The notes: generated by a model from the letters alone, not told the origin. 64,000 bases of DNA from Escherichia coli (GCF_048403405.1 NZ_CP183135.1); one strand, 5' to 3'; numbered from the stretch's first letter, positions 53,280 to 54,902 are shown. A program made the numbers and translations.

Positions 53280-53746
53280 CAGAACACTCGGCCAGCAACA
53301 TCCGCTTATTGGCGATGCGCTTGAACGAATAATGCACAGACTTATGATTCTGATAAGTTTTGTTGCCAGAGAGTTGCTGCGGACTGGATAGCAAGTAATG
53401 TCGATTCTCAGGGGTAGCAAACAGCGCAGTAAAATGAGGGAAGTAGTGGCAAAACATAGAGAAAATTGGGGGGCGAGGGCCAGTGATGTAAAAAACCACG
53501 CTAAGAGTTTAATTAATTGTTTGTATTGAAGTTTAATGATCTTAACTCACCCTTAAGAATATCTTCCGGTAACGAAGACGTATAATGCCCCAGCATATTT
53601 ATATGGCTATGTATCAGCAGCGATAATCTTGCCGGATGCTACTCCTCAGGAGTTTCTCCCGATTTGCGAAGATGTGACAACGCCTCCTGCATGTAAAGTG
53701 TGTTTCACAGCACAACCGCATTGGTCACCAGCCCCAGAGCACCTAG

Positions 53747-54181
53747 TTGATCTTCCTGCCCTTAACGGTAGCTGAAGATGACTGGGCTGGATGGAAAATC
53801 CTGCATGGTGCATTGGGAGAGCAGATAGAATTGGTTGGCGACGATCTGTTTGTGACCAACGTAAAGTATATTCAGCGCGGCATTGACGAAAACCTTGCCA
53901 ATTCAGCATTGATTAAACTCAACCAGATTGGTTCCCTGAGTGAAACCTTTGATGCGGTACAACTTTGCCATGACAACAACTGGGGCACCTTTATCTCACA
54001 CCGCAGTGGTGAGACAGTGGACAGCTTTATCGCCGATATGACAGTTGCAATGCGCGCAGGTCATCTCAAAACGGGAGCTCCATGCCGGGGTGAGCGTATT
54101 GAAAAATATAACCAGCTTATGAGAATTGAGGATGAACTGGGTTCATCGGCGCAATTTGCCGGAAAGTCTGCCTTTAAATGA
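53747..54181 (+). pseudogene. eno: C-terminal fragment of an enolase gene
   Basis: ...[45 protein letters not shown]...[50 protein letters not shown] matches the enolase C-terminal domain; no N-terminal domain upstream. Confidence 0.75.
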
Positions 54182-54521
54182 CATTATTGTGCCAATCCCC
54201 CAGGCTTACACGTCGGGGTTATTCTGGAGGAATGATGAAAGCTCACGTTTTTGTTATTTCTATGCTTACTGGCATTGTCGTCACCTATGCCGTGTTACTT
54301 CTTGGTTGCTTGTTCATCGATAAAACGCTCCCCACTGTAGATGTTGTCATTCTGTCACTTGTCGTGGGGGCTTCTGCTCAGCAATTGTCGAGGGTATTAA
54401 TGTCAATAAATAGAACCTTCCCTTATCTTGCATGTAGTCAAAGGATATAAATTAACAATATCAGTCAAATGAGAACATATTCTGATATTGTTACGATAAA
54501 AAATTATTTTATGAGGGGTAC

Positions 54522-54902
54522 ATGATTAAATCACTTTTTGCCGTCATTATCGGCGGTTCTGTTGGATGTACTCTGCGCTGGTTACTGTCCACACGCTTTA
54601 ACAGTCTTTTTCCAAATCTACCTCCAGGTACACTGGTGGTGAACCTCCTTGCCGGGTTAATTATTGGTACTGCGTTGGCGTACTTTTTACGACAACCACA
54701 CCTTGATCCTTTTTGGAAATTAATGATAACAACGGGACTTTGTGGAGGTCTGAGTACTTTCTCTACATTTTCTGTTGAAGTATTCGCATTACTCCAGGCG
54801 GGAAATTATATATGGGCTTTGACGTCTGTACTTGTTCACGTCATTGGCTCCCTCATCATGACAGCTTTAGGCTTTTTTATCATAACCATACTTTTCGCAT
54901 GA
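54522..54902 (+). CDS. crcB: fluoride ion channel CrcB/Fluc (126 aa)
   Basis: MIKSLFAVIIGGSVGCTLRWLLS...GLCGGLSTFSTFSVE..., four TM segments. Confidence 0.85.
   Translation: MIKSLFAVIIGGSVGCTLRWLLSTRFNSLFPNLPPGTLVVNLLAGLIIGTALAYFLRQPHLDPFWKLMITTGLCGGLSTFSTFSVEVFALLQAGNYIWALTSVLVHVIGSLIMTALGFFIITILFA

Follow-up and report, generated by a model that had tools for sequence, protein, structure and literature searches.

A decayed Tn3-family element between sitD and shiF

The 64,000-nucleotide stretch of Escherichia coli sequence analyzed here (NZ_CP183135.1, GCF_048403405.1; hereafter the window) belongs to a mosaic IncF plasmid of combined resistance and virulence type. Within it, the original prediction had described the C-terminal third of an enolase, a 73-codon hydrophobic open reading frame (ORF) and a CrcB fluoride channel lying between sit and iuc, and had looked in vain for a fluoride riboswitch that could explain the regulation of crcB. 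The sit-iuc setting was borne out: sitD lies upstream and shiF downstream, with iuc beyond shiF in plasmid pEC244_2 (L001), which is 99.9% identical to the window. The genes in between sit within a decayed remnant of a Tn3-family transposon (53468-55093), from which most of a riboswitch-controlled fluoride operon has been deleted. The region is made up of the following features:

52422-53279, sitD, with a match to Pfam ABC-3
53462-53467, left AAAATT direct repeat, a putative target-site duplication abutting the left inverted repeat
53468-53507 (+), left terminal inverted repeat, GGGGGGCGAGGGCCAGTGATGTAAAAAACCACGCTAAGAG, pairing with 55054-55093
53501-53772 (-), tnpA 3' remnant, a pseudogene of the last ~90 codons
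53771-53772, deletion junction with 2-bp microhomology (GC), where tnpA' is joined to 'eno
53773-54181 (+), eno' pseudogene, comprising the 136 C-terminal codons (32%) of a fluoride-operon enolase
54232-54450 (+), gene for a small two-helix membrane protein, with ATG codons at 54232 and 54235 behind GGAGGA and a stop at 54448-54450
54522-54902 (+), crcB, encoding the fluoride channel Fluc-Ec2, identified through Pfam CRCB, NCBIfam NF010792 and PDB identity
55054-55093 (-), right terminal inverted repeat, whose reverse complement, GGGGGGTGAGGGCCAGTGATGTAAAAAATACGCCAAGAGG, pairs with 53468-53507
55094-55099, right AAAATT direct repeat, identical to 53462-53467 and abutting the right inverted repeat
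55282-56475 (-), ShiF-like major facilitator superfamily (MFS) gene

An inverted-repeat search returned two arms of 41 nt (53455-53495 and 55066-55106) with 90% complementarity. The terminal repeats themselves span ~40 nt, from GGGGGG(C/T)GAGGGCCAGTGATGTAAAAAA through ACGC(T/C)AAGAG, display the hallmarks of Tn3 inverted repeats (~38 bp, starting with GGGG and ending in ...ACGCTAAG), and align with those of related Tn3-family elements in the Klebsiella michiganensis plasmid pMX581-77k (L002) and in an Enterobacter hormaechei IncHI plasmid (L003). The left repeat runs into the tnpA remnant, and together they occupy 53464-53772, part of the range that had been searched for a riboswitch; these 309 bases share 92% nucleotide identity with the inverted repeat and tnpA 3' end of L002 (8001-8309). 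In a tblastn search, residues 914-990 of the 1002-residue L002 TnpA aligned to 53770-53540 with 91% identity, and the Prokaryotic Genome Annotation Pipeline (PGAP) labels the same place in plasmid pS88 as a 'Tn3 family transposase, incomplete' pseudogene. Only TnpA residues ~914-990 were found in place of a DDE_Tnp_Tn3 transposase of ~1000 aa, and no tnpR was found in the element; with tnpA cut to ~90 codons and tnpR gone, it cannot move on its own.

L002 shares with the window inverted repeats of 38-40 nt (GGGG..YGAGGGCCA.YGATGTAAAAAACCACGCTAAG). In elements of this type the end of tnpA falls within the inverted repeat, and a divergent tnpR is followed by the cargo. The cargo of L002 encodes SIR2 and DUF87 proteins, whereas that of the window derives from a fluoride operon.

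The fluoride operon in undeleted relatives

The long form from which the window departs is found at the same sitD-shiF site in pEC244_2 and in ~16-18 other IncF plasmids in PLSDB. In pEC244_2 it comprises, in order, the left inverted repeat, a tnpA pseudogene (residues ~430-990), half of tnpR, the fluoride riboswitch RF01734, ppaC, usp, eno, the small ORF, crcB and the right inverted repeat. Both enolase and pyrophosphatase are classically known to be inhibited by fluoride, an ion that CrcB exports. Comparison by blastn placed window positions 52001-53772 on pEC244_2 2990-4761 and positions 53771-56600 on 9001-11830, with 99.3-99.9% identity, so that the window equals pEC244_2 minus 4,239 bp (4762-9000). 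Because a single breakpoint splits both tnpA and eno, each continuous in pEC244_2, the long form must have come first, and the window form must have arisen from it by deletion. The riboswitch, the promoter, ppaC, usp and two thirds of eno are thus gone from the window and still present in sister plasmids. The deleted form is by far the more frequent of the two among complete E. coli genomes: a 151-bp probe of the exact junction matched 948 of 5,426 at >=99% identity, against only 23-26 of the 5,426 for the riboswitch-ppaC-usp-eno segment, where PGAP annotates a 'riboswitch'. The structure in pS88 is identical to that of the window.

The ORF at 53747-54181 matches Pfam Enolase_C (E 7.7e-59) only over profile positions 158-293 of 296, and a Pfam scan of it did not detect an Enolase_N domain. 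The fragment is thus as short as first described, but its proposed start is not that of a gene: enolase homology in the blastn alignment to pEC244_2 begins at 53771-53773, and the first 8 codons, from TTG 53747, are antisense tnpA read across the deletion junction, and hence an artefact. What remains corresponds to residues 291-426 of the 426-aa full-length relative, and PGAP describes it in pS88 as 'missing N-terminus'. Full-length eno is present in pEC244_2, in the E. hormaechei plasmid and in Rosenbergiella metrosideri JB07 (L033). A functional enolase combines Enolase_N with a complete Enolase_C TIM barrel, and eno' has neither. The sequence evidence therefore contradicts published readings in which the 136-codon fragment acts as a functional enolase, as a virulence factor or shikimate-pathway helper (PMC3438092, PMC4723317, PMC8602916). 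A separate observation concerns the 5' end of the pEC244_2 eno gene (8131-8170), where codon 11 reads TGA in place of the CGA seen in the R. metrosideri and E. hormaechei copies, and for which PGAP predicts a shorter enolase from a downstream start; the riboswitch-bearing E. coli form, too, may be without a fully normal enolase.

More distant relatives document the transposon in less damaged states. The E. hormaechei IncHI plasmid, 85% identical, retains tnpR, tnpA up to codon 295, where IS26 cuts it, RF01734, the operon and the right inverted repeat. When 100,044 species genomes were searched with the 32-nt aptamer core, R. metrosideri JB07 came to light, which carries a complete element (~5958-13429) consisting of the left inverted repeat, tnpA (1004 aa), tnpR (187 aa), RF01734, ppaC, usp, eno (426 aa), a 59-aa ORF, crcB and the right inverted repeat. 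Its cargo is 94.4% identical to that of pEC244_2, and the element is whole, in contrast to the stump in the window. It provides an undamaged Tn3-family vehicle for fluoride tolerance, a finding that bears on how the trait spreads horizontally. The Rosenbergiella tnpA (~72% nucleotide identity) and the inner sequence of its inverted repeats are nevertheless unlike the E. coli version, and no intact fluoride-cargo copy of the E. coli-type transposon was found in PLSDB, where many tnpA-tnpR backbones with other cargo occur. A trace of the Rosenbergiella-type end survives downstream of crcB, as the first of two minor features between that gene and the right inverted repeat:

54936-54965 (+), relic of an inner, older right inverted repeat of Rosenbergiella type, its outer end truncated
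54968-55021, perfect 23-bp palindrome with an 8-nt loop and no U-tract

The relic aligns with the inner part of the R. metrosideri right inverted repeat (~13386-13429) and is 21 nt longer in the E. hormaechei plasmid (~10960-11005); it implies that the fluoride cargo moved between different Tn3-family backbones. The palindrome (RNAfold -44.5 kcal/mol) has imperfect arms in the 85%-identical E. hormaechei copy and was perfected in the E. coli lineage, where, set between crcB and the convergent shiF, it could work as a barrier or stabiliser in both directions.

The operon has a characterized counterpart in Enterobacter cloacae, the FRM operon, which runs RF01734-ppaC-uspA-eno-gpmA-crcB-orf5249, is induced 10- to 100-fold by fluoride, and whose deletion lowers the minimum inhibitory concentration of fluoride from >4,000 to 1,500 mg/L (PMC5533749). 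The FRM operon and that of pEC244_2 share logic and order, with RF01734 upstream of ppaC followed by usp, eno and crcB, and the transposase genes that flank each of them point to horizontal transfer. They differ in that the plasmid operon has a 59-aa gene between eno and crcB, where FRM has gpmA, and no orf5249. Of this layout the window keeps only eno' (32%), the small ORF and crcB, without the riboswitch; the full RF01734-ppaC-usp-eno-crcB order is found in pEC244_2, the E. hormaechei plasmid and R. metrosideri, and in the window it is reduced to eno' and crcB. The window locus is accordingly a deletion derivative of an FRM-type fluoride operon and not a functional member of the group.

The absence of the riboswitch, reported initially from inspection alone, was upheld by covariance-model searches. 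A cmscan run with permissive filters gave no RF01734 match at E<=10 in 52000-56500, and across the 64-kb window no RF01734 reached the gathering threshold (34 bits), the only hits being RNA-OUT and the attI/AAC_AAD leader. The same tool detects RF01734 in six related places at 36.7-50.2 bits, so the negative result in the window is not a failure of sensitivity. Sub-threshold matches to Rfam miRNA and snoRNA families were set aside as artefacts, mostly of the 23-bp palindrome, together with low-scoring noise. In pEC244_2 the riboswitch lies at 6602-6676 (43.8 bits, E 8e-10), and it scores 45.3 bits in the E. hormaechei plasmid and 45.9 bits in R. metrosideri. In all relatives it stands upstream of ppaC, not of crcB.

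These results leave very little room for the idea that a divergent fluoride sensor or another cis-regulator, missed by the covariance model, is present within 53280-53750 or 54182-54521. A conserved 12-bp inverted repeat upstream of crcB might be taken to suggest one, but 53464-53772 is fully explained by an inverted repeat and a tnpA 3' end that are 92% identical to those of transposons with unrelated cargo, 54182-54521 is mostly occupied by a small coding gene under purifying selection, RF01734 gives no signal even at E<=10, and in relatives the riboswitch stands ahead of ppaC. The question of regulation that had been left open is thus answered by structure: there is no hidden regulator, and the riboswitch has been physically deleted, surviving in a minority of sister plasmids.

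Where the riboswitch persists, the aptamer and ~70 nt of downstream leader (pEC244_2 6676-6740) are invariant in four lineages (L001, L003, L033 and the Rahnella plasmid L004), with coding sequences differing by up to 27%. The conserved leader holds a hairpin overlapping the aptamer 3' end and the string CUUAUGAAAAAAAUUC, a pattern of conservation that indicates a constrained, putative expression platform. No canonical terminator was predicted in the conserved leader, and the platform may not be a simple intrinsic terminator. In R. metrosideri, a second RF01734 (13478-13547, minus strand, 50.2 bits) lies just outside the right inverted repeat and points into the transposon, whose insertion seems to have separated a resident fluoride riboswitch from its target.

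The small membrane-protein gene and Fluc-Ec2

The hydrophobic ORF behind GGAGGA indeed begins at ATG 54232, but the length first assigned to it is not ancestral. In the window it encodes 72 aa; the ancestral gene encodes 59 aa, and relative to the E. hormaechei plasmid the loss of 1 nt from an A-run shortly ahead of the stop codon has converted the ending ...MSNK* into ...MSINRTFPYLACSQRI*. Homologues of 59-63 aa adjoin eno in six loci (L003, L004, L033, L035, L036 and L038), although in L038 the small gene is convergent with the cluster and not directly after eno. The gene was found beside eno in every riboswitch-bearing ppaC-usp-eno cluster that the analysis covered. This answers in the affirmative the question of conservation raised with the original prediction, as do dN/dS values (Nei-Gojobori) of 0.28, 0.10 and 0.08 in three pairwise comparisons, next to 0.09-0.13 for ppaC. 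The alignment contains 24 invariant columns out of 59, including K2, H4, G13, Y18, G24, G45 and Q49-Q50. The small ORF is a real gene under purifying selection.

RF01734 stands upstream of ppaC in all four scanned loci with the small ORF (L004, L033, L035 and L036), and crcB is not annotated after the small gene in L004, L035 and L036; going by these gene neighborhoods, the small membrane protein appears to travel with eno and not with the channel. L035 also carries a second RF01734 on the opposite strand (9934-10009). An exhaustive profile search of 1.84 billion representatives recovered only 17 members, all of one family, and the small ORF has no Pfam or NCBIfam match. The notion that it is a degenerate half of a second CrcB subunit was rejected (hhalign probability 0.3%). 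Our best guess, reached by pure inference, is that the protein is a membrane accessory of the fluoride response. The family is narrowly distributed, tied to fluoride operons and apparently unexamined by anyone, and it is the sole unexplored element of the locus.

The assignment of the third gene as a CrcB fluoride channel is secure. The protein scores 93.9 bits against PF02537 (cutoff 32.9, E 9e-27) and 175.8 bits against the CrcB equivalog NF010792 (cutoff 125). Published hallmarks of CrcB/Fluc proteins are a length of ~120-130 residues, four transmembrane helices and the motif GxxGGxTTFSTFxxE in the third (TM3) (PMC3755343); the window protein has the expected length, at 126 aa, and carries the TM3 motif as GLCGGLSTFSTFSVE, in which the first T of the motif is S, likewise in the Ec2 structures. 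It is identical to PDB 7KKR at 125 of 126 residues, R25K being the sole difference, and near-identical to 5A43. At the protein level nothing separates it from Fluc-Ec2 (PDB 5A43, 6B24, 7KKR), which has been shown experimentally to be a fluoride-selective, dual-topology dimeric channel (Stockbridge et al., PMC3755343), and earlier readings of plasmid crcB as a supercoiling, camphor-resistance or plasmid-condensation gene (PMC3438092, PMC4723317, PMC8602916) are superseded by the Fluc literature. The source of Ec2 was stated only as an 'E. coli virulence plasmid', with nothing further on genomic context (PMC3755343), so that a native genomic setting is now given for a workhorse of fluoride-channel biophysics. 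The protein, WP_001318207.1, is encoded by deleted and undeleted plasmids alike.

The crcB gene is intact, with a Shine-Dalgarno sequence (GAGGGG) ahead of it, and is preceded by one further feature:

54453-54493 (+), perfect 12-bp inverted repeat in the spacer between the small ORF and crcB, TAACAATATCAG, a 17-nt spacer and CTGATATTGTTA

This repeat (fold -14 kcal/mol) is mostly kept in the E. hormaechei plasmid. Between pEC244_2 and that plasmid, crcB is 94.8% identical, and ppaC, usp and eno are 81-87% identical, suggesting a mosaic or recombinant history for the 3' end of the operon.

Mechanism and present-day expression of crcB

The explanation that we consider highly probable for the locus as a whole combines a Tn3 remnant, a deleted fluoride operon and read-through from sit. 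The ancestral cargo would have comprised riboswitch-controlled ppaC (encoding a Mn-dependent pyrophosphatase), usp, eno, the 59-aa membrane gene and crcB, with fluoride bound to the RF01734 aptamer in the leader presumably switching operon transcription on. In the ColV/IncF lineage, one illegitimate deletion of 4,239 bp would then have fused the tnpA 3' end to eno at codon ~291, leaving a dead eno fragment, a small ORF frameshifted at its 3' end and an intact crcB, none of them likely to sense fluoride any more. Expression of crcB would now come mainly, at a low level, from read-through of the co-oriented, Fur/MntR-regulated sitABCD operon, and control would have shifted from fluoride to iron and manganese limitation.

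Several lines of evidence make sitABCD read-through the most likely source of crcB transcripts, chief among them gradients in published quantitative reverse-transcription PCR (RT-qPCR) data. The eno' fragment, the small ORF and crcB share the strand of sitD, on which the nearest promoter ahead of them is that of sitABCD. A standard scan found no intrinsic terminator between sitD and crcB (53280-54521), and a loose scan returned one weak AU-rich hairpin. In pS88, transcripts were detected by RT-qPCR from eno' (ORF17), ORF16 and the CrcB-like ORF15 (PMC3438092). Fold-inductions in urine ex vivo were 83.9 for sitA, 26.3 for sitD, 7.98 for eno', 4.14 for ORF16 and 4.19 for crcB; in urine in vivo, the corresponding values were 776, 140, 18.7, 9.74 and 6.08 (PMC3438092). 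These inductions fall in gene order, as fits decaying read-through from Psit. In Salmonella IncFIB plasmids, likewise, the 'enolase' fragment and sitA are induced by bipyridyl (PMC8602916, PMC6567447).

A different source of transcripts, which we regard as rather unlikely, is a constitutive promoter that crcB keeps for itself, in the spacer behind the small ORF or inside eno', independent of both riboswitch and sit. Promoter-like hexamers do occur at 54452-54481 (TTAACA, 18 nt, CATATT; 9/12 match, overlapping the 12-bp inverted repeat) and at 54099-54126, but sigma-70-like matches are at chance level (5, versus 4.2 +/- 1.7 in shuffled sequence), and the putative -10 element is not kept in the 85%-identical E. 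hormaechei copy. The distal genes of the E. cloacae FRM operon are induced ~10-fold and the proximal genes ~100-fold, which would suit an internal promoter, yet RT-PCR showed the distal genes to be co-transcribed with ppaC-usp-eno (PMC5533749). The partial uncoupling of pS88 crcB from eno' in serum and with chelator (PMC3438092) also speaks for such a promoter.

Those same data are among the points that weigh against the explanation favored here. In serum, pS88 crcB changed 0.82-fold and eno' 5.44-fold, and with chelator crcB (2.4-fold) exceeded eno' (1.47-fold) (PMC3438092); from these non-monotonic values, a weak independent internal promoter may contribute. The case for read-through from sitD to crcB is itself indirect. 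On the structural side, the undeleted E. coli form is decayed, with truncated tnpA and tnpR and a nonsense mutation at eno codon 11, and is a closer relative of the ancestor rather than the ancestor. Tn3-family elements classically create a target-site duplication of 5 bp. The repeat flanking this one is the 6-bp AAAATT, containing the strict 5-mers AAATT and AAAAT, and no empty target site that would prove a simple insertion was found in 5,426 E. coli genomes or 72,556 PLSDB plasmids.

Whether crcB confers any benefit today is a separate matter. That it is a functionless hitch-hiker, barely expressed, redundant with chromosomal crcB and kept by the recent clonal spread of ColV/IncF sit-iuc plasmids, is a lesser but real possibility. 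All ~950 copies are 99-100% identical, which means that decay has had no time to set in. The neighboring eno is a pseudogene, the small ORF carries a frameshift, and the 2-kb region has in some plasmids tolerated insertion of IS1 or IS3 or additional truncation. Arguing for a working gene are the intact crcB reading frame with its good Shine-Dalgarno sequence, a pS88 transcript that can be detected and increases 4- to 6-fold in urine (PMC3438092), and the full activity of Fluc-Ec2 as a channel in vitro (PMC3755343). Hitch-hiker status would concern present-day benefit only and is compatible with the structural explanation.

A bolder, joint proposal, which we put forward tentatively and think less likely to hold than to fail, is that the 59-aa protein is an undescribed, dedicated fluoride-operon component, maybe a membrane partner or modulator, found only by RF01734-ppaC-usp-eno clusters, and that in ~17% of sequenced E. 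coli the deletion has moved Fluc-Ec2 from fluoride sensing to the control of sit, and so of iron and manganese limitation. If so, the rewired channel would switch on in urine and serum, maybe aiding extraintestinal fitness.

Each part of the locus belongs to a familiar class: there is a Tn3-family remnant, there is an enolase pseudogene, the channel is Fluc-Ec2, and the whole derives by deletion from an FRM-type operon. The eno and tnpA pseudogenes are already annotated in RefSeq, as is the riboswitch in the long form, and a literature search found no publication that ties the eno'-crcB module of ColV plasmids to the riboswitch operon. The locus is a common, already sequenced relic that reveals no new regulatory system or biological principle, and the synthesis of its parts is what is useful.

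Elsewhere, the window contains an attI/AAC_AAD leader of a class 1 integron and an IS10 RNA-OUT (12-93, 14930-14999), as well as two other Tn3-family transposase genes, at 3338-6211 (+) and 27723-30116 (-), which are only ~30% identical to the one left as a remnant here.

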